This document shows, piece after piece, positions 1 to 57,205 of a DNA stretch of 64,000 bases. Each line of letters starts with the position of its first letter. The stretch's first letter is position 1. Below the pieces are notes generated by a model that saw only the letters and a list, made by a program, of their open reading frames with translations, was not told the DNA's origin and ran no database searches. The translations under genes and the position numbers were made by a program. Source of the DNA: an uncultured Gammaproteobacteria bacterium (GTDB lineage Bacteria > Patescibacteriota > Patescibacteriia > Patescibacteriales > UBA12465); assembly GCA_964435515.1 (NCBI GenBank), contig CAYSZD010000003.1, positions 13,080 to 77,079 on the forward strand. The letters are read 5' to 3'.

Positions 1-23
1 CATTTCCTTTTGTTAGGCAAAAA

Positions 24-12996: not shown

Positions 12997-15003
12997 TTAA
13001 AAGCCAGAAATACCAACAGATATTTCAGGCTGACCAGAAATAGTAGAATAACCAACAGAAATTATATTTTGAAAATCTTTTGTAAATGAAAAGAAACTTT
13101 TTTTCTCATTGCCAACTTCATCAAATATCTTTATCAATGATCCTCCACCAGGACCATCACCAGTAATTATCTCCGCCTTACCGTCACCATCTAAATCGCC
13201 AGCAGTAACCTTTACTCCTCCTCTAAAATTTTTATCATAAGCGAAAAAATGATTAATAAATTCACCCCTCTCATTGAAATAACGAACATGAGGACCGCCA
13301 CCATAACCAGCGCCAGTAATTATTTCCGCCTTACCATCACCGTTAACATCAGCTGCGCTCATATTAACTCCACCCCTAAAATTCTTATCATAAGCGAAAA
13401 AATTTAATAATGAACGACCGTTAGAATCAAAGACTCTCACCTGAGGACCGCCACCAGAACCAGCACCAACTATAATTTCTGGAAAAGAATCACCATTTAT
13501 ATCAGCTATCGCTAAAGAAGCTGAGCCTTTAAAGCCTGGAGCAAATGGTCTTATGGTCCACATATTTTGACCATCTCTTTGTCGAGTTAGTAATCCTTTG
13601 TCTAAATATATATAATCAATTTTACTATTATCAAAAAATTTACCCAATATAACATCACTACCAGCCGGTATAGAAGTAATATAAGAGAAAAAACCATTAC
13701 GAGCCTGTTCGCCTTCTGAATCAAAAACTCTTAAAAATGAACCATTAACAAAACTACTTCCCTGCCAAGCATTCAACTTTTTAAGCAATACGATTCCGTC
13801 TTGAGCATCTAAATTTAAATAATTTATTTTTAAACCATTATTAATTTTTGGATCCTGATTACCTTTAATTTTTTCAAATTCTTCTTTGCTAAAAACAAAA
13901 TTTTGCTTTTTATCAGTTGAGTTTAAAATAACCAAACCATTCTCAAAATCACGTCGCCATAATCCAGGCTCAATCTTTGTACTTCCATTTTTTAAAATAT
14001 TATAAGGCTTTGATTGAGCTAAACCTAAATTTACATCATATTCATCATACCACCATAATTGAGCGTGATTAGTAATATCATAATCAAAACTATAATATCC
14101 ATCGCCTAACAATGTACTGCTTAAACCAAAACGGAAAAGACGATAATCATTTTCATTTTTTTTATTAATATTAATAACAGATACATTAGGCTCTTTGTTT
14201 AAACTAGGTAATTTTAAATAAGATTCCATAGAACCTTGCCACGTTCCTCCATTTTCCCAGCTAGAAGGAAAACTTTCTAGCATCATACCATTCAGTAATC
14301 CTTGATAGGGCCAATGTATGCGTCCATTACCTATTACTATAAACTCTGAACCACACAATTCTCTAGTCAAACGTAACATTTTTTCAAAACCCTCAGCCCA
14401 AATAGTATCAGCGTGCTTAGAATCATCTTTAATACCGTCTCTATTTAAATCAATATTACTATTATTAACCCAAGCTACATCACCCCAGGTATTATCATAG
14501 AAAACCCCGTCCCAGAGACCAGAACTAAAAATTTTATCTTTAATAAAACGAGGCAGGAATTCATTAAATAATAAATTATCTTTATTCCTGCCCGATTCAT
14601 TACTTAAATTAAACATTGAGGTAAAAGGCCAATTAACCACTGCCTTACCATTTTGATCTTTTAGGCGCCAATCCTCAATAATTTGCTCAGATAATTCTTG
14701 ACGTAAAAAAGCATTATTATAATAATCAGCTTCATTAATAATTTCTTGAGCGGTAATATAAGCTAAAATCTTTACCTTAGGATTAATCGTTCTTATTTTC
14801 CTTATTAACTCTGGGTTATTTATTTGATTTTCCATGTCTAAAATAACAAGATCCCAACGCGCTAAAGAAATAGCCTCAGCTTCAGTTAAATCCCATTTAA
14901 GAAAATAATTAGCTAAACGAGGATAATCAGATTGAGTTGAAGCTGACACTGAAAACGGTAGAACAAAAGATATAAGAATAATTAATGAGACAAAATATTT
15001 CAT
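12997..15003 (-). CDS. secreted protein: N-terminal putative glycoside-hydrolase-like domain plus C-terminal FG-GAP/VCBS repeats
   Basis: Signal peptide present. Three repeats: DINGDSFPEIIVGAGSGGGPQVRVFD, DVNGDGKAEIITGAGYGGGPHVRYF and DLDGDGKAEIITGDGPGGGSLIKIFD. The N-terminal assignment is tentative. Confidence 0.65.
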   Translation of the reverse strand: MKYFVSLIILISFVLPFSVSASTQSDYPRLANYFLKWDLTEAEAISLARWDLVILDMENQINNPELIRKIRTINPKVKILAYITAQEIINEADYYNNAFLRQELSEQIIEDWRLKDQNGKAVVNWPFTSMFNLSNESGRNKDNLLFNEFLPRFIKDKIFSSGLWDGVFYDNTWGDVAWVNNSNIDLNRDGIKDDSKHADTIWAEGFEKMLRLTRELCGSEFIVIGNGRIHWPYQGLLNGMMLESFPSSWENGGTWQGSMESYLKLPSLNKEPNVSVININKKNENDYRLFRFGLSSTLLGDGYYSFDYDITNHAQLWWYDEYDVNLGLAQSKPYNILKNGSTKIEPGLWRRDFENGLVILNSTDKKQNFVFSKEEFEKIKGNQDPKINNGLKINYLNLDAQDGIVLLKKLNAWQGSSFVNGSFLRVFDSEGEQARNGFFSYITSIPAGSDVILGKFFDNSKIDYIYLDKGLLTRQRDGQNMWTIRPFAPGFKGSASLAIADINGDSFPEIIVGAGSGGGPQVRVFDSNGRSLLNFFAYDKNFRGGVNMSAADVNGDGKAEIITGAGYGGGPHVRYFNERGEFINHFFAYDKNFRGGVKVTAGDLDGDGKAEIITGDGPGGGSLIKIFDEVGNEKKSFFSFTKDFQNIISVGYSTISGQPEISVGISGF

Positions 15004-17907: not shown

Positions 17908-20451
17908 TTATTGTTTAAGAGGTGATGGCGAATCCATAACTATCTCAGTTCGCCTAATAATATTAGCTTCAACAATTGAACGATCTTGACCAAATTTTAA
18001 GCGGCTCAAAGTTCTTATCTTAGTTGACATATCAGGACGCGCTACACCAAGCAATGGCCAAACGGTTTTTATAGAAAATGGTCGAGTCGCACTATTATCA
18101 ACTAATAATTTAATATAGGCCGTTCCTTTATCAATATTAATTAGATCATAGGCGTTAAAAACAGGTGAAAATTCTTTAACTAAAAATTCGGCATCTTCTG
18201 TACCAATTTTAAAACTAATCATTGTGCCCACGTTACCAAAAACAGCATCTTTAATTTCGGTATTATTATTCTTGCTCAACTGGCCAATATACTGATGGGC
18301 AATAATTAGATTTAAAGCATATTTTCTAGCTTCAGATAAAATCTGACAAATAGATGAAGTAGTAAAGTTCTGAAACTCATCAATATAAAGATAGAAATCT
18401 TTTCTATCTTCCGCTTTCATATCAGTACGAGACAAAGACGCCATTAATATTTTACCAACAATAATCATACCCAAAAGATAAGCATTCATTTCACCAACTA
18501 CACCTTTAGGTAGATCGATTAACAATATTTTTTGACGATCCATTAAATCACGAAAGTTGAAAGAGCTTTTTTGCTGACCAATAATTGGACGCATCATGTC
18601 ATTAGAAATGAAAGCAGTAAGTTTAGAAGTGATATAAGGAACAATGTTCGCTAAAGCAGCATCACCGCCAGCCTTCTCAGCTTCTTTCTTCCAAAAATCC
18701 ACCACCGTTCTATTCTTACACCTAGATAATTTTAGACGTCTAAAATTCTCATCTGATAAAACTTTAGGTATCTCCATTAAAGTAGAACCACTCTCAGGAT
18801 CTTCCATAATTAACAATAGAGCATTTCTCATATACTGCTCAAACATTGGCCCACCTGTCTGCTTTAAATCATATAATTTATCAAAGATACCAATCATTTC
18901 ATTAATCACAAAACTCTTTTGTTCTGGATAGCGAGGGTCATATTCTAATAGATTTAAAGATAAGGGTCTTTCGGTATCAGCTGGTGAAAAAATCACCACA
19001 TCTTCTGCTCTTTCGGGCGGAATTCTTTGTAGAATATCTTCAATTAAATCTCCATGAGGGTCAAGAACACAGACCCCTTCTCCATTTTGAATATCTTGAA
19101 CAGCCATATTGGTTAACAAAACAGATTTACCAACACCAGATTTACCAATAATATAAGTATGTCGACGCCTATCTTGCCCCTTCATTCTTATCTCTTTATT
19201 AACACCTCGATAGACATTATTGCCTAACAATAGACCTTCATTAGGAAGATCAGCCGGAGCAGGAGCACTTTTAGCTGTTAGCCAAAGAATATTAGGTGTC
19301 TCCATGTGTTTTAAGGGTAAATGAAAAACACTGGTCAGTTCTTCGGTATTTAATAAAAAAGAAGCATCTTCACGAAAACGGCGATAAATAAAATCTTTAA
19401 TTTGTCTTTCCTGATTAGTCTTAATAGCCCTTGAAAAATGATTACCGTAACTATAATTATTAAATTCCGTAAAAACACTAGCAATATTTTCTAAATAAGC
19501 AGCTGATCTCTCTTTACTAGCAGTTGATACCACCAAACGTAAATTAACATCAAGACCAGCTCTTAAATTCTTTTCTTCAATTGTTTTTAAAGTCTCCTCC
19601 TCTACCGCTGATAAGTGTTTAGAGTTTTGTAATGAATTTGGATCTTGTGGTTTAGAGCTACTAGCTATAGACAAAGTATCTCCTATTTCTTTAAAAGCCT
19701 GACTAAGTCCAGATTGATTAATGCCATCACTAACTGAATTTTTCGTTTGTATCCGACGCACTATCTTCCTTACTTTACGATGCCAAGATCCAAGAGCGCT
19801 TCTAACTATATATTGAACAGCAATACTTTCATCTTTATCTAACTTAGACATCACATTAATCATGGAATTTAATGGATCAACCTCCATTTTCTGATAAGTG
19901 CGCAATGGCAAAACAAAGCTCTTTTTAGTTTTTAAATAAGCACTAGCTATATTACTATTTGCTTGAAAAATATTATAATCTTCAAGCTCTTCGATAACTG
20001 CCTCTGGATAGTAAGCGTTAATTTGTTGCTCCATATAACGAGATAACGCTCTCGGAGCAACTACGTAAAAAGCAATCTTATTAGCATGTGCTACTATCTC
20101 AAAAGAAAAATGATCATTTCTACCAAAAAACCAAGCAATAAATCCTTTTTGAGCCTTAAGTCCACCAATGCTAGCAAAAATAGTTTCACCTTTAGCTATC
20201 TCTTCCCTTGTCTGTTGTAGAGTGTCTTCCCTTTTTTCATCTTCTGGCTTTTCTTTAGGTAATTTAATTAAAAAAATTTGATGATCAAAATAATTATTAT
20301 TACCAAAAAAATGACGCACAATAAGACGAATAAATAATACGAGCAAGAGAAATAAAGCTAAAACTATAATCAAAACAAATAAACTAAGTAAAAGAGCTCC
20401 TGCTGGAGTGCTAAAAAAATCAGGGATTATTTGTTCAATTGATTGAAACAT
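17908..20451 (-). CDS. membrane protein with a C-terminal VirD4/TraD/TraG-like (type IV coupling protein-like) P-loop ATPase
   Basis: N-terminal TM helix plus an ~410-aa module. Then Walker A IIGKSGVGKSVLL, VLDPHGD, Walker B YLYIDEFQNF, and the AHQYIGQL / GNVGTMISFK motifs typical of the T4CP/FtsK-HerA superfamily. Confidence 0.7.
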   Translation of the reverse strand: MFQSIEQIIPDFFSTPAGALLLSLFVLIIVLALFLLLVLFIRLIVRHFFGNNNYFDHQIFLIKLPKEKPEDEKREDTLQQTREEIAKGETIFASIGGLKAQKGFIAWFFGRNDHFSFEIVAHANKIAFYVVAPRALSRYMEQQINAYYPEAVIEELEDYNIFQANSNIASAYLKTKKSFVLPLRTYQKMEVDPLNSMINVMSKLDKDESIAVQYIVRSALGSWHRKVRKIVRRIQTKNSVSDGINQSGLSQAFKEIGDTLSIASSSKPQDPNSLQNSKHLSAVEEETLKTIEEKNLRAGLDVNLRLVVSTASKERSAAYLENIASVFTEFNNYSYGNHFSRAIKTNQERQIKDFIYRRFREDASFLLNTEELTSVFHLPLKHMETPNILWLTAKSAPAPADLPNEGLLLGNNVYRGVNKEIRMKGQDRRRHTYIIGKSGVGKSVLLTNMAVQDIQNGEGVCVLDPHGDLIEDILQRIPPERAEDVVIFSPADTERPLSLNLLEYDPRYPEQKSFVINEMIGIFDKLYDLKQTGGPMFEQYMRNALLLIMEDPESGSTLMEIPKVLSDENFRRLKLSRCKNRTVVDFWKKEAEKAGGDAALANIVPYITSKLTAFISNDMMRPIIGQQKSSFNFRDLMDRQKILLIDLPKGVVGEMNAYLLGMIIVGKILMASLSRTDMKAEDRKDFYLYIDEFQNFTTSSICQILSEARKYALNLIIAHQYIGQLSKNNNTEIKDAVFGNVGTMISFKIGTEDAEFLVKEFSPVFNAYDLINIDKGTAYIKLLVDNSATRPFSIKTVWPLLGVARPDMSTKIRTLSRLKFGQDRSIVEANIIRRTEIVMDSPSPLKQ

Positions 20452-20945: not shown

Positions 20946-21119
20946 CTATGAAATAGTTATTGCCTTAACTGGACAATTATTAGCAGCTTTTTGAGCACAT
21001 GCTTGATTGTCGTCAGCTAAGACTTCCGCCTTATAATCTTCGTTCATCATAAAAGTCTCTGGGCAAATACTAGCACAAAGACCGCAACCAATACATTCAT
21101 TTTGATTAAGCTTAATCAT
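20946..21119 (-). CDS. fdx: small [4Fe-4S] ferredoxin (57 aa), absent from the ORF track
   Basis: Hand translation gives MIKLNQNECIGCGLCASICPETFMMNEDYKAEVLADDNQACAQKAANNCPVKAITIS. It carries CxxCxxCxxxCP ... C ... CP, as in Thermotoga/Pyrococcus-type monocluster ferredoxins. Confidence 0.85.
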   Translation of the reverse strand: MIKLNQNECIGCGLCASICPETFMMNEDYKAEVLADDNQACAQKAANNCPVKAITIS

Positions 21120-21254: not shown

Positions 21255-21283
21255 TTGACAGACCCTAGTTATTTTGTTATATT
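21255..21283 (+). promoter_or_regulatory. sigma70-type promoter of rpmA (TTGACA-17-TATATT)
   Basis: TTGACA at 21255-21260, exact 17-nt spacer, TATATT at 21278-21283. Confidence 0.7.
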
Positions 21284-21365: not shown

Positions 21366-21641
21366 ATGGCACATAAGAAAGCCGGCGGCTCAACCGCCTT
21401 AGGCCGAGATTCAGAGAGTAAGCGTTTAGGCGTAAAACTATCTGACGGCCAAAAAGCCAAAGCTGGCAACATTATTATCCGCCAACGCGGAACTAAATAT
21501 CATCCAGGCGAAAATGTACGTCGCGGTAACGACGATACTCTTTTTGCAGTAGCTGATGGTTTAGTAAAATTTGCTAGTAAAAAATTGATGAAATTTAATG
21601 GAAAGTTAAAAGATAGTAAAATTGTCAGTGTTGTTAAATAA
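21366..21641 (+). CDS. rpmA: 50S ribosomal protein L27
   Basis: [10 protein letters not shown]...[13 protein letters not shown]. Confidence 0.95.
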
Positions 21642-53268: not shown

Positions 53269-54471
53269 TTATTTATTCTCTAACACTGAACGATATATAT
53301 CAAGGGTCTTTTTAGCACAATTCGACCAACTAAAACGTTTAATATTTTCTAATCCCTTCTTAATTAAGTTTGCCCTTAAAACATTATCATTTATCATTAT
53401 TTTCATCTTATCTAAAATGTCATCTTCTCTATAGGGATCAAAGTACAAAGCAGCGTCACTCATAATTTCTGGTAAACTAGCCTGATCAGAAGAAAGAACT
53501 GGACAAGAATATGACATAGCCTCTAAAGGTGGTAAGCCAAAGCCTTCATAAAATGAGGGGAAAACATAAAACAAAGCCTGTTGGTAAAAATAAGACAAAT
53601 CTTCATCAGGCACATAACCAGGAAATATAAATAAATCTTTCTTAGCTTCTTTTGCTTCATTGCTAATTATTAAGGCTTGATCTTTTAAACGTTTATAAAA
53701 ATAATCCTCTTTGCCCACCATCACTAAAGATAAATTTCGATACTCTAGAGATAATTTTTGAAATATTATTAATAATGATTCTAAATTTTTATGAGGATAA
53801 GCATTGCCCACATATAAAATAAATGGTGTTTTTACCTTATACTTATCTAAAGACACTAGAAGCTCTTCCCTGTTTTTCTTATCTATAAAATTATTAGACA
53901 GCTTAGCCACTCCTTCATAACTAACTTTTATTTTACTAGCTCTAATTTTAAACTTATTAATAATATCCTCCTTAGTAAAATTTGATACGGTAATAATTTG
54001 TCTAGCATTTTTTAAAGCTTTTTTAATAACTACTCTATAAGCATATTGTTTAAACCAATAAAGAGTAGCGGGTAACATTGAAGCGCGACGACTAGGAAAA
54101 CGAGTTAGAATTAAATCATGAATTGTGACCACAAAAGGCACTGGGCAAAATATAGGTACATTAAAATGAGGAAAATGCATTAAGTCAAGCTTAGCCTTTT
54201 TAATAATTGTTGGAAAAAAAACTTGTTCACGCCAAGAATACCAGGGCAATAATAATAGTTTTTTCTCTACAAACTTAGAATTTATTTTAAAATCATCAAA
54301 ATTATCAGCACTTAAAAATATTACATACTCATATTCTCCTCCATTTTCTTCATTGATTTTAATTAAATTATCCACTACTTCTTGTACATAACGACCCAGG
54401 CCCTTTCCTAAGGGTCCGTAAAAACGAGCATCAATGCCTATTCTTTGGCGTTGTTTAATATTATTTAACAT
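53269..54471 (-). CDS. glycosyltransferase, GT4 (group 1) family
   Basis: The C-terminal PSFYEGFGLPPLEAMS motif. Its start overlaps the upstream stop (TAATG). Confidence 0.85.
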   Translation of the reverse strand: MLNNIKQRQRIGIDARFYGPLGKGLGRYVQEVVDNLIKINEENGGEYEYVIFLSADNFDDFKINSKFVEKKLLLLPWYSWREQVFFPTIIKKAKLDLMHFPHFNVPIFCPVPFVVTIHDLILTRFPSRRASMLPATLYWFKQYAYRVVIKKALKNARQIITVSNFTKEDIINKFKIRASKIKVSYEGVAKLSNNFIDKKNREELLVSLDKYKVKTPFILYVGNAYPHKNLESLLIIFQKLSLEYRNLSLVMVGKEDYFYKRLKDQALIISNEAKEAKKDLFIFPGYVPDEDLSYFYQQALFYVFPSFYEGFGLPPLEAMSYSCPVLSSDQASLPEIMSDAALYFDPYREDDILDKMKIMINDNVLRANLIKKGLENIKRFSWSNCAKKTLDIYRSVLENK

Positions 54472-55949
54472 TATACAAAGGGTAAATTATCAGGAATATT
54501 CTCATTAGTCTCCTTTAAAAAATTATCTTCATCATCTTTTTTTGAATCACTTTCGGAAGATGCTACTTCTTTTTTTGCTGATGTTTCCCTATTATTAGAA
54601 GTTAGAATGTCATCCTGAAAAAACTGTGGCGAACCACTAGCAATATCACTTACCAATGGCAAAGATGAAGGAGCGTCAGCTTTTCGTCCTGGGGCCTTCT
54701 GAATCATAGGAGCCTTCACATTAGCTTCAACTGGAAAATGCCATAAAGTAGCCAATTCTTCAATATTAAATAAGCCCGGATTTCTTCCATTATAATCATC
54801 CCTGGCAATATAATTAGTCATAATAGAATTTTTCTTTTTTATCAATCTTTTATCCTTATTAAAATAAGCGGTCCTAGTCATGGTAAATTTTAAGTCTGGC
54901 TTTAAATTATTTAAATCCAAGGCTACAAACTGTTTCATATATCCAACTAAACCATTAACCACCTTACTGCGCATCATTAAATCCTTACGGGCCACATAGA
55001 CAATCCTAATTTTTACCTCAAAAGCTACTTTAGAAGCTTTTTCTTGAATAGCCTCGATTTGTTTCTTTTGTTTAGGATTTAATTCCATCATTGATAATCC
55101 TTTATCATCTTTTTCCTTGCTTTCAATATCACCCCAAATACTATAAATAACTTCACTAGCCTCACCTATCCATTCAACTAACTTTGAAGACCAACCTTTT
55201 GAGGCCTTATTCTTACCCAATATTTTATCGACCATTACATCACTTTCTTTTATCCAGTCAAATCCAGTTGGAATAAGAATAATTTGAAACCATAGGTTCT
55301 CCCCTTCTCTCAAAGAACTACACAAATCCATAAGCGATGCCATAGGATCTTTAAATTGAGTCTCACTGGGACCATATTGATGCTCAAACTCTTTATACAT
55401 TTTAATTGGAAAAGCCCAATGCTGTGATTGAATAAATTCAGACCCCCAAACATCATATTCTTCATCCGGAAAACGATGGGGCACTGTATCAACGTAATCA
55501 TCAACTTCAGCAATTTCAGCATCAGGATATTGAGAATATACAGAAGTTTCAATTAAATCCCGAAACTCAATTGGTGTTCTAATTAAAAACTGAGTATAAC
55601 CCTCTAGGCTGACAATCTCATAACTAAAAGATACTTGAAATTTACCTTCAAACCATTTCTCAAAAAAACTTACAGAACCATGAGCACCAGCTAAATAGGT
55701 AAACATATTTTCCACCGCTTTAGGTGATTGTTCGTTGCCTTTAGGAATATCAATGGCCAACATAATAAATTTTAGATTATTATCCGCCCAATATGATCTT
55801 ATTTTTTGTAAATAGACTATCAATAATCCATATAACAACAAAATTGCTAATAAAATCCAGCCAATGTTAATAAAAAAGACCCACAACATTTCAATAGGTG
55901 GTAGATTTATAAATTGATCTAAACGACTCGTATCTATAGTTATCGTCAT
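54471..55949 (-). CDS. membrane protein homologous to the N-terminal ~410-aa module of ORF 17908-20451, without the ATPase
   Basis: The shared ordered blocks are listed in the finding for this ORF. Confidence 0.65.
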   Translation of the reverse strand: MTITIDTSRLDQFINLPPIEMLWVFFINIGWILLAILLLYGLLIVYLQKIRSYWADNNLKFIMLAIDIPKGNEQSPKAVENMFTYLAGAHGSVSFFEKWFEGKFQVSFSYEIVSLEGYTQFLIRTPIEFRDLIETSVYSQYPDAEIAEVDDYVDTVPHRFPDEEYDVWGSEFIQSQHWAFPIKMYKEFEHQYGPSETQFKDPMASLMDLCSSLREGENLWFQIILIPTGFDWIKESDVMVDKILGKNKASKGWSSKLVEWIGEASEVIYSIWGDIESKEKDDKGLSMMELNPKQKKQIEAIQEKASKVAFEVKIRIVYVARKDLMMRSKVVNGLVGYMKQFVALDLNNLKPDLKFTMTRTAYFNKDKRLIKKKNSIMTNYIARDDYNGRNPGLFNIEELATLWHFPVEANVKAPMIQKAPGRKADAPSSLPLVSDIASGSPQFFQDDILTSNNRETSAKKEVASSESDSKKDDEDNFLKETNENIPDNLPFV

Positions 55950-56020
55950 AACACAATATAAACAATTTAAGCCTTTAATAGACTCAACATTATGCTAATA
56001 TTTTAGCATAAATTGAAAAA

Positions 56021-56060
56021 TAAAAAAACCGCCTCTACTATTTAAAAATAAAGGCGATTT
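56021..56060 (-). terminator. terminator after the sigma-r4/HARE-HTH gene
   Basis: Minus strand ATCGCCTTTA-loop-TAGAGGCGGT (two G-U pairs) followed by T7. Confidence 0.65.
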
Positions 56061-56080
56061 TATCTATTGTATATTTAATA

Positions 56081-57124
56081 TTATGCTTGTTTCCATTCTC
56101 TCAGGCCATACATTCCTCTACCGGTTAAAACGTATCTATCGTCAAGAATAAGTTCATTGTGCACAGTAGCAGGATTAGCATTTTTATGATCAAATTTAAC
56201 TTCATTTATCCTAGCAGCAATGTCAGTGAAATGTAGTGCTTGACCATAATTCTTCAGAACTAAATAAATCTTATCATTAATTGTCTTTGGCTTGATTTCA
56301 TGCCAATCACTTTTACCCCAAAAACCAAATTTATTACGTTCTAAATTTTTAATTGATTGAAGCAATGAGTATACAGACTTATTTTTATTCATTAATTCCG
56401 CCTTGTCAGGAAAAGTCTTACTCTTAAAAATAGAACTAATATCTAAATTATTACCCTGATTTAAACAATCTTGATGACGTTTATAGCTATCAAGCTCAGA
56501 GGCTATATCCATTAATTTACTGGTATCTAAAGTGGTATTTAAAGATTCTATCTTTTGGATTAATTCTTCACTCATTTCCTTAAAATGATCAAGTGATTCA
56601 TCTTTTAAAGAAATTGAAGGATTAAAATTATTATTTCCAGCTAAAACACTAAAATCATCAGAAAGCAACTTAGATAAAAGAAAATCAAATCTATTGCGAT
56701 ATGCTTGACGATTTTTATCATAATCAGCGCCATCAAGCTCATTTTCGTCATTCATTTCTAGGCTCATCACTGTTAAAATATCTAAAAGAAAATCTCTTCG
56801 TAACATGCCTCCGTGTTCTTTAAGTAGACCATTAACCACTCCACGTAAAACCTGAAGGTATTCATCTAAATTATCTAATTTTTTTATCTTTTTAATACTA
56901 GCATTCTCAATTTGGCGCACTCTTTCGCGAGTTAATTTATGTAATTTACCAATTTTTTCTAAAGTTTCATAGCTATCACCATTCAAACCAAAACGACGAG
57001 TCAAAATGTCTTTTTCTCGCTCCATTAAATCAGAAAATAAGCTATTTACAACTTTAATAGCATTTAACTTTGATAACTCTTCAGTGCGTTTTTCTTGCAC
57101 AATTTTTTCCAATATATTCTCCAT
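56081..57124 (-). CDS. DNA-binding protein with a sigma-70 region-4-like HTH (N-terminal) and a HARE-HTH-like domain (C-terminal)
   Basis: REKDILTRRFGLNGDSYETLEKIGKLHKLTRERVRQIENASIKKIKKL is sigma r4.2-like. YLVLKNYGQALHFTDIAARI...DDRYVLTGRGMYGLREW resembles the RpoE-delta/HARE-HTH pattern. ATG 57124 is preferred because promoter boxes lie inside the longer track ORF. Confidence 0.65.
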   Translation of the reverse strand: MENILEKIVQEKRTEELSKLNAIKVVNSLFSDLMEREKDILTRRFGLNGDSYETLEKIGKLHKLTRERVRQIENASIKKIKKLDNLDEYLQVLRGVVNGLLKEHGGMLRRDFLLDILTVMSLEMNDENELDGADYDKNRQAYRNRFDFLLSKLLSDDFSVLAGNNNFNPSISLKDESLDHFKEMSEELIQKIESLNTTLDTSKLMDIASELDSYKRHQDCLNQGNNLDISSIFKSKTFPDKAELMNKNKSVYSLLQSIKNLERNKFGFWGKSDWHEIKPKTINDKIYLVLKNYGQALHFTDIAARINEVKFDHKNANPATVHNELILDDRYVLTGRGMYGLREWKQA

Positions 57125-57176
57125 ATAAAAAAATAGCAGTGCTATGTTAGAAATAATAATATATGTCAACAACTGT

Positions 57177-57205
57177 AATCTATCATAATACGATATATTA
57201 GTCAA
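57177..57205 (-). promoter_or_regulatory. sigma70-type promoter (TTGACT-17-TAGATT) for the sigma-r4/HARE-HTH gene
   Basis: On the minus strand, -35 at 57205-57200 and -10 at 57182-57177 with an exact 17-nt spacer. Confidence 0.55.

Follow-up and report, generated by a model that had tools for sequence, protein, structure and literature searches.

A Patescibacteria protein family that joins a sigma region 4 module to a HARE-HTH domain marks the head of an orphan VirD4-type ATPase module

What does a bacterium do with the -35-reading end of its housekeeping sigma factor when the rest of that factor is missing? This question is raised by a gene in the 64-kb stretch of Patescibacteria DNA analysed in this study (hereafter, the window), which encodes a 347-amino-acid (aa) protein that begins with a copy of region 4 of a primary sigma factor (sigma-4) and ends with a delta-like HARE-type helix-turn-helix (HARE-HTH) domain. 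Patescibacteria have tiny genomes in which transcription control is almost unexplored, and here the end of the housekeeping sigma that reads the -35 element is reused without the remainder. The gene family marks the head of an orphan VirD4-type ATPase module, in which the gene is followed by a second one encoding a membrane protein of the DUF8128 family. The gene is thereby tied to a group of ATPases whose role in Patescibacteria is a standing question (PMC12102498). The coordinates of the features discussed below are collected in Table 1.

Domain architecture of the 347-aa protein

The Pfam model Sigma70_r4 (PF04545) matched residues 31-82 of the protein above its gathering score (39.5 bits against 24.1; E=4e-10). 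The best full-length NCBIfam models were RpoD, RpoS, SigA and MzaA rather than sigma factors of the extracytoplasmic function (ECF) group, and the NCBIfam and PDB sequence matches were confined to region 4 of RpoD, RpoS and SigA, all of the PDB matches being primary sigma factors. When an alignment of 59 family members was compared by hhalign with 54 RpoD-type sequences taken from the fetched loci, one significant match was obtained (columns 3 to approximately 85; 99.4%, E=1e-21), which begins at residue 3 and covers the end of sigma region 3.2 followed by region 4. The module was also compared, in an ungapped register, with a C-terminal reference whose sequence and numbering we take to be those of Escherichia coli sigma70 (the numbering agrees with known mutant positions). 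Of 11 residues in contact with the -35 element, ten were identical (R554, R562, L573, E574, T583, R584, E585, R586, R588, and Q589), and nine of these ten were found in 57-59 of 59 diverse relatives, the less strict positions being R554 (49 Arg and 9 Lys) and E574 (43/59). The core hydrophobic positions F563, I565, and L598 were conserved in kind. At the level of sequence, these results show that the protein opens with some 85 residues copied from the C-terminal end of a primary sigma factor, the -35-reading residues being essentially intact.

The remaining parts of a sigma factor were sought as well. No Sigma70_r2 or Sigma70_r3 match was detected in the protein by Pfam at E-values up to 1, and regions 2 and 3 were not found by hhalign against the 54 RpoD-type sequences, in which alternative alignments had a probability of less than 1%. 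A cryptic region 2 or 3 within the middle 200 aa was rejected by the same comparison. Because region 2 is absent, the protein is not a conventional sigma factor; regions 2 and 3 are both missing, and it therefore cannot bind core RNA polymerase (RNAP) in sigma fashion or open a promoter. A longer candidate reading frame of 374 aa, starting with TTG at position 57205, is listed for the gene. This start is an artefact, because the TTG forms the opening three bases of the -35 hexamer of the gene's own promoter and M1 of the 347-aa form is invariant in 61 homologues. Homologues are mostly 344-349 aa long, and the same protein is called with 347 aa on an NCBI contig of 88 kb.

The best-conserved part of the family lies at the other end of the protein, in a beta-hairpin (NKFGFWG..W) followed by the HARE-HTH domain, and most of the relatives retrieved in the search of representative sequences described below matched here. 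In the window's protein, Pfam HARE-HTH (PF05066) gave a sub-threshold match to residues 282-344 (E=0.003; 18.4 bits against a gathering score of 25.9), and the RNAP delta model TIGR04567 was matched with E=1e-7 and 31.9 bits, which fails the equivalog cutoff of 42. Both Pfam domains passed their gathering scores in all ten relatives scanned (27-45 bits for HARE-HTH), and precomputed PF05066 matches are carried by many close homologues. The AlphaFold2 (AF2) model of the whole protein had a mean predicted local distance difference test (pLDDT) score of 80 and a predicted TM score of 0.74, with values of approximately 88-92 in the HARE-HTH domain. The best local Foldseek matches were N-terminal domains of RNAP delta (8x6g_E, 9a6y_A, 2m4k, 6zca_D, and 7f75_L), with probabilities of 0.94-1.0 and a target TM of approximately 0.6 for most, the whole-query E-values being weak (0.1 or worse). 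HARE-HTH was accepted at the family level because all ten relatives passed and Foldseek favoured RNAP delta. The protein ends three residues past this domain, without a long acidic disordered C-terminal region. It is not an RNAP delta subunit, because it scores below the TIGR04567 cutoff and has no acidic tail.

Between the two ends, residues 84-175 showed the element order H84-103, E107-109, H110-122, H135-153, E158-161, and E170-173, with pLDDT values mostly of 76-92 and one 10-residue block at 66; we regard this segment as a putative winged helix, because its topology was read from the DSSP string. Residues 176-257 had no database match, and Foldseek returned only low-probability tandem winged-helix proteins. 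The middle region (residues 85-250) has an isoelectric point of 4.7. In the AF2 model, winged-helix-like domains are packed against the HARE-HTH domain; the part behind the sigma-4 module is predicted to be compact and winged-helix-like throughout, with a delta-like HARE-HTH at its end. A segment resembling the C-terminal domain of RNAP alpha, at which one database name hints, gave no Pfam signal at E-values up to 1. The protein itself had no match to type IV secretion or relaxosome proteins in Pfam, NCBIfam, PDB, or Foldseek, and only its neighbours had such matches. A phage origin was rejected, as tblastn found zero matches among 50,697 phage records.

The earlier note on this DNA had described a sigma region 4 HTH joined to a HARE-HTH-like C-terminus by about 200 uncharacterised aa, and had concluded from the missing region 2 that the protein is not a conventional sigma factor. 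The region 4 assignment agrees with the hidden Markov model search, and the missing region 2 with both Pfam and hhalign; the longer start, which the note had left to be validated, is an artefact. The HARE-HTH assignment holds for the family, with the sub-threshold score in the window's own protein. As for the 200 aa, they indeed lack a Pfam match, but they are confidently predicted by AF2 to form winged-helix-like domains.

The family and its conserved neighbours

Residues 85-347, a query without the sigma-4 part, were searched against 1.84 billion representative sequences. This search retrieved at least 787 clusters at 50% identity at E-values up to 1e-3 and 567 at E-values up to 1e-10. Among the relatives listed, 127 were 330 aa or longer, and 123 of these had a TRERxRQ motif near the N-terminus. 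Named members come from Falkowbacteria, Uhrbacteria, Jacksonbacteria, Harrisonbacteria, Kaiserbacteria, Doudnabacteria, Peregrinibacteria, and Parcubacteria or Paceibacterota, so that the distribution across these bacteria, which the earlier note had thought worth examining, spans many Patescibacteria lineages. The closest named relative, from Candidatus Falkowbacteria, is 69% identical to the window's protein, and the mean column identity among close relatives is 72%. Almost all relatives carry an extra C-terminal segment of 65-70 residues past the HARE-HTH domain, with a winged-helix-like sequence pattern, and the window's clade is without it. The family is thus large, Patescibacteria-wide, and uncharacterised, and it is a new combination of known parts that belongs to neither the sigma nor the delta family. 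Our literature search found no paper describing this protein family or DUF8128.

The names given to members vary. Generic ones are "sigma factor-like helix-turn-helix DNA-binding protein" and "HTH HARE-type domain-containing protein"; others are "primary sigma factor", "principal sigma factor HrdA", "RNA polymerase subunit delta", and "Lrp family regulator", and one member is annotated as [quoted passage not shown]. The names sigma factor, HrdA, delta, and Lrp are unsupported, because the sigma and delta memberships failed and none of the profile scans gave an Lrp-type match. Some host bins of relatives are labelled Clostridia or Bacillota, probably through mis-binning. In one representative cluster, the hairpin and HARE-HTH lack a sigma-4 module and are joined to a coiled coil and a membrane region of several passes; this could be a real tethered variant or an assembly chimera.

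Gene neighbourhoods were compared in 96 family loci (90 clusters at 90% identity) from GTDB genomes and metagenomes, the metagenomes having been searched with a C-terminal-only alignment. Neighbours were scored against the window's proteins, and the denominators 65, 50, and 52 below are non-redundant loci with enough flanking DNA. A DUF8128 homologue lay directly downstream on the same strand in 58 of 65 loci (at least 1.5 kb of downstream sequence), and a homologue of the window's open reading frame (ORF) 17908..20451 came next after DUF8128 in 33 of 50 (at least 4.5 kb). This ORF encodes an ATPase with the Pfam domains TrwB_AAD_bind, T4SS-DNA_transf, and TraG-D_C and the NCBIfam matches TraD and VirD4-like. 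In the window it is 36 kb away from the sigma-4/HARE gene, whereas most lineages have it in third place within the module. ATPase adjacency was found in none of the 17 loci of the clade that lacks the extra C-terminal winged helix, compared with 45 of 77 in the others. In a survey of 2,918 Patescibacteria genomes, only 148 of 5,713 VirD4-type homologues were near virB4, relaxases were rare, and the authors considered that the VirD4-type genes had possibly been exapted for another function (PMC12102498).

A single membrane helix at the N-terminus, a body, and an acidic, disordered tail make up the DUF8128 protein. Its AF2 model had a pLDDT of 66, and TrwK/VirB4 of plasmid R388 took all of the first 13 places among the PDB matches in Foldseek (E=1.8e-4 at best), suggesting that the protein is membrane-anchored and that its body resembles the N-terminal domain of VirB4. 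No anti-sigma fold was seen in this VirB4-N-terminal-domain-like protein and, with region 2 missing from the first protein, the two genes do not qualify as an ECF sigma/anti-sigma pair. The N-terminal 400 residues of the ATPase are paralogous to DUF8128 (BLASTP E=4e-17). DUF8128 is thus an ATPase-less paralogue of the first half of the ATPase, which suggests a hetero-oligomeric membrane assembly.

Two further observations concern the sequences of these partners. The orphan type IV coupling protein of Patescibacteria is itself a hybrid, one half of which resembles the N-terminal domain of VirB4 and the other of which is an ATPase of VirD4/TraD type. DUF8128 proteins throughout the phylum end in PPxNLP[F/I/V] (DNLPFV in the window) behind a variable, often acidic, disordered linker, and a first copy, (A/P)PxxLP, stands right behind a conserved EELATLWHFP motif, which corresponds to the junction with the nucleotide-binding domain in the paralogous ATPase. 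The C-terminal motif of DUF8128 looks like a docking peptide.

Transcription signals and the glycan genes of the window

The sigma-A-type promoter of the gene consists of a -35 hexamer TTGACT (57205-57200), a 17-nt spacer, an extended -10 TG (57185-57184), and a -10 hexamer TAGATT (57182-57177). It was not significant in a consensus scan of the single sequence, in which 10 sites were found and 10.8 expected. Comparison of relatives supported it: TTGACN-16..18-TAnnnT occurred within 160 nt upstream of the gene in 74 of 85 family loci, against an average of 1.4 in shuffled sequences, with the extended -10 TG in 62 of these 74 and a spacer of nearly always 17 nt. In 16 loci of the window's clade, whose proteins are 60-100% identical, the 29-nt promoter block was approximately 93% identical, with approximately 91% in the spacer and 50% in the flanks. 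Conservation that includes the spacer suggests a protein-binding site overlapping the promoter. Only seven such promoter motifs were present in the window, all of them intergenic, and the two examined, those of the sigma-4/HARE gene and of rpmA, lie upstream of a gene.

Several features of the promoter and leader were noted in addition. The spacer (57183..57199, minus strand; 15 related loci) contains the direct repeat TAATRT-AAAA-TAATRT, with copies one helical turn apart and a degenerate second copy (TATTAT) in the window; this repeat may be an operator inside the promoter. A second perfect TTGACA is located in the 5' leader at 57164..57169 (minus strand), 36 bp downstream of the -35 box, and is not conserved. 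The leader directly before the start codon (57125..57140, minus strand, and its orthologues) has the conserved U-rich sequence TATTTTTTTAT-ATG without a Shine-Dalgarno sequence, and the DUF8128 start likewise has none.

Downstream, the gene is closed by an intrinsic terminator, whose hairpin (56025-56061) and U-run have a folding energy of -19.3 kcal/mol (z = -6.2); 46 of 77 family loci have a terminator-like hairpin with a T-run in the corresponding position. In the window's clade, TATGNTAAAAT, with the motif TATG(C/A/G)TAAAAT and no TTGAC box, is conserved right behind the terminator. TGnTAnnnT was present in 46 of the 56 spacers of at least 70 nt before DUF8128, compared with a mean of 16.5 and a maximum of 24 in shuffles. 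A TTGAC-type promoter, sought in the spacer before DUF8128, was found in none of 77 loci; the promoters in this position have an extended -10 or a weak -35 element instead. The spacer is shorter than 70 nt in 21 of 77 loci, implying that the gene and DUF8128 are probably cotranscribed in these. The palindrome ATGCTAAAATATTAGCAT (56009-55992) was considered as an operator candidate and rejected, as it is not conserved in relatives.

The earlier note had given the gene its own TTGACT-17-TAGATT promoter and its own terminator, and both stand, the former on comparative grounds. It had also placed the gene between GT2/rmlA/rmlD and an "N-module"/GT4/DUF4012 operon, at the head of an envelope-glycan cluster of which it might be a locus-specific regulator. 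The position is correct for the window, where the order is rmlD-rmlA-GT2, the gene, DUF8128, GT4, DUF4012, DUF11, and TGT, and this synteny, which is the evidence in favour of control over GT2, rmlA, rmlD, GT4, and DUF4012, is kept in relatives down to approximately 60% identity. Beyond that clade the glycan genes do not flank the gene: of 52 non-redundant loci, only 10 have GT2 immediately upstream, GT4 followed DUF8128 in 9 of 50, all in the window's short-form clade, and DUF4012 likewise was downstream only there. Both the family and DUF8128, its partner, have a much greater age and range than that clade. Glycan regulation is therefore very unlikely, is largely refuted by the distribution, and survives only as a clade-specific addition. 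The finding of the note is nonetheless real and is more general than its author thought, the relevant neighbour being the "N-module" gene, DUF8128.

The window as a whole is AT-rich (32.8% GC) and carries housekeeping genes of Patescibacteria type, including a division/cell-wall cluster, TGT, DnaX, and tRNA synthetases. No tRNA gene and no Rfam family at the gathering threshold was found in it, nor was a second copy of the sigma-4/HARE gene or a sigma factor found elsewhere in it. The whole-window ORF list had a minimum of 100 aa, below which two small ORFs fall. One is the 91-aa ORF 21366..21641 (plus strand), ribosomal protein L27 (rpmA), which is preceded by a consensus promoter at 21255..21283 (plus strand); the other, beside it at 20946..21119 (minus strand), is a 57-aa ferredoxin-like ORF (CxxCxxC...CP). 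A 668-aa protein (12997..15003, minus strand) with a GHL15 glycosyl-hydrolase-like domain and FG-GAP repeats lies within an otherwise housekeeping operon.

Table 1. Coordinates in the window of the sigma-4/HARE gene, its predicted domains, its transcription signals, and its partner genes
Feature	Position	Strand	Basis or remark
Sigma-4/winged-helix/HARE-HTH protein, coding sequence	56081..57124	minus	ATG start, 347 aa and stop
C-terminal end of sigma region 3.2 and region 4 module, residues 3-83	56876..57118	minus	Recognition helix LTRERVRQIE
Predicted winged-helix domain, residues 84-175	56600..56875	minus	AF2 and DSSP order; no Pfam match
Predicted acidic helical, winged-helix-like middle domain, residues 176-257	56354..56599	minus	AF2 pLDDT 83-93
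Conserved beta-hairpin (NKFGFWG..W) and HARE-HTH winged helix, residues 258-345	56090..56353	minus	Pfam, TIGR04567, Foldseek
Sigma-A-type promoter of the sigma-4/HARE gene	57177..57205	minus	Consensus scan and comparative conservation
Intrinsic terminator of the sigma-4/HARE gene	56012..56061	minus	15-pair hairpin, then U7AU5
Extended -10 promoter TGCTAAAAT of the DUF8128 gene	56000..56008	minus	Directly past the terminator; no TTGAC -35 box
DUF8128 (PF26449) gene	54471..55949	minus	Directly downstream partner of the sigma-4/HARE gene
847-aa protein, DUF8128-like N-terminal half and VirD4/TraD-type coupling-protein ATPase	17908..20451	minus	Pfam, NCBIfam

Possible roles and comparison with known systems

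With somewhat less than even confidence, we favour the view that the protein is a sigma-A-derived regulator, itself not a sigma factor, encoded by the leading gene of the ATPase module. It would read hexamers of the -35 type and control both this module and, by sigma-4 mimicry, its own gene. The sigma-4 HTH would bind TTGAC-type (-35-like) hexamers, and the best candidate site is the conserved 29-nt block of its own promoter, where binding would result in autoregulation. By occupying the -35 box, and possibly the beta-flap too, the protein would compete with region 4 of sigma-A, which would disfavour -35-dependent promoters and spare the extended -10 promoter of DUF8128 that has no TTGAC -35 box. 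The winged-helix/HARE body may add DNA contacts or, alternatively, RNAP contacts of the delta type. A target found everywhere, the -35-type hexamer, best accounts for the invariance of the recognition helix. Regulators that head deeply conserved operons exist, MraZ being an example, and a block of -35 recognition spares extended -10 promoters in the case of T4 AsiA. Such a regulator would be a first handle on a conserved Patescibacteria regulatory circuit and an example of sigma-4 mimicry.

Several points weigh against autoregulation by sigma-4 mimicry. DNA binding by the sigma-4 module is proposed from sequence, the sigma70 contact K593 is replaced by Ala, and AF2 confidence is low over this part (pLDDT 44-69). 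The DUF8128 promoter has a weak -35 element such as TTGGCA in several clades, and the contrast between a -35-dependent and a -35-independent promoter is thus not universal. A near-consensus promoter of the rpmA class suggests an abundant protein, which would better fit a general factor or a structural partner. Phylum-wide conservation of gene order often signals physical interaction and not regulation; in addition, the ATPase gene moved 36 kb away in the window's clade while the sigma-4/HARE gene stayed beside DUF8128.

Two other roles are each unlikely but well within consideration. The protein may be the DNA-recognition or adaptor subunit of a membrane translocase of type IV secretion ancestry, consisting of DUF8128 together with the VirD4-type ATPase, in which four or five HTH/winged-helix domains would bind DNA and pass it to the ATPase. 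The three-gene order conserved across the phylum, the paralogy of the VirB4-N-terminal-domain-like DUF8128 to the N-terminal half of the ATPase, and the scarcity of virB4 near VirD4-type genes with their possible exaptation (PMC12102498) are in keeping with such a subunit, the strength of the promoter would be acceptable for a structural component, and the only clade without the extra winged helix is also the only one without an adjacent ATPase. However, this last association amounts to a single evolutionary event, and in most lineages a terminator and a separate promoter precede DUF8128, which is unusual for stoichiometric partners. An adaptor also offers no reason for a recognition helix that stays identical to that of the primary sigma, and the rarity of relaxases in the phylum speaks against it. 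Were the protein a partner of the ATPase, it would point to the job of these exapted secretion ATPases. With about the same low probability, it may be a general RNAP-bound accessory protein that modulates initiation or recycling genome-wide, its adjacency to DUF8128 being historical; the sigma-4 module would be anchored on the beta-flap and the delta-like HARE-HTH on the beta-prime shelf and jaw. This would suit homology that reaches into the sigma 3.2/4 linker lying under the flap, the conservation of F563, I565, and L598, a HARE-HTH closest in fold and sequence to delta N-terminal domains, which bind between shelf and jaw (PMC7749165), the strong promoter, and a widespread, very well conserved family. 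Yet the protein fails the delta cutoff and lacks delta's acidic tail, its invariant residues are the DNA-reading ones and not those facing the flap alone, a flap-bound sigma-4 module would clash with region 4 of sigma-A in the holoenzyme, and the deep linkage to DUF8128 is left unexplained.

A further and somewhat less probable proposal is that the protein physically couples promoter-type DNA or RNAP to the DUF8128/VirD4-type membrane machine as the DNA-recognition subunit of a translocase, which would then have been exapted for DNA handling in epibiotic, DNA-scavenging bacteria. If this were true, a sigma-factor domain would be serving away from transcription initiation in a way not known before. 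That the protein is a minimal but true alternative sigma factor, or half of a split one, is extremely improbable. Its region 4 is genuine and of primary-sigma type, and relatives appear in some public records as "primary sigma factor" or "HrdA", but regions 2 and 3 were found neither by Pfam nor by profile-profile comparison, and the N-terminus is fixed at M1. The split form was rejected because a Falkowbacteria genome encodes, next to dnaG, a full-length RpoD of 473 aa in which regions 2 and 3 are present together with a region 4 of its own.

The protein shares with primary sigma-70 factors (RpoD, SigA, and RpoS) the end of region 3.2 and regions 4.1 and 4.2 in residues 3-83, the recognition helix TRERVRQIE, and 10 of the 11 -35-contact residues. 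It differs from them in lacking regions 1.2, 2, and 3, in the change of K593 to Ala, and in having its sigma-4 module at the N-terminus, with winged-helix domains behind it, instead of at the C-terminus. Compared with RNAP delta (RpoE) of Bacillota, it has a HARE-HTH domain whose best structural and best non-sigma NCBIfam matches are delta N-terminal domains, but it falls below the TIGR04567 cutoff, carries this domain at the C-terminus rather than the N-terminus, and has no acidic disordered tail. In delta, the acidic tail displaces nucleic acids, and the N-terminal domain, which resembles sigma region 1.1, anchors between the beta-prime shelf and jaw (PMC7749165). In place of the acidic tail, the longer relatives of the window's protein have a folded winged-helix-like segment after the HARE-HTH. 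Other HARE-HTH proteins (PF05066) share the domain family, but no nuclease, glycosylase, or methylase partner domain and no match to the alpha C-terminal domain occurs here. Aravind and Iyer are said to have reported in 2012 bacterial HARE-HTH proteins that combine features of the RNAP alpha subunit and of sigma factors. We found no description in the literature of a link between this family, DUF8128, and a type IV secretion ATPase.

In mode of working, the module would resemble TraM-TraD, TcpK-TcpA, the gamma domain of FtsK, and the winged helix of Streptomyces TraB, in which an ATPase of the VirD4/FtsK superfamily has a DNA binder of HTH or winged-helix type, either as the product of an accompanying gene or as a fused domain. 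No sequence homology to those systems was detected, the domain set is another one, and the genes are usually separated by a terminator; relaxases, moreover, are mostly absent from Patescibacteria (PMC12102498). Purely by analogy, the predicted outcome of sigma-4 mimicry, in which -35 recognition would be blocked and extended -10 promoters spared, is that of T4 AsiA and Rsd. These proteins bind region 4 of sigma, whereas the protein described here is a copy of region 4 that would compete for the DNA or for the beta-flap.

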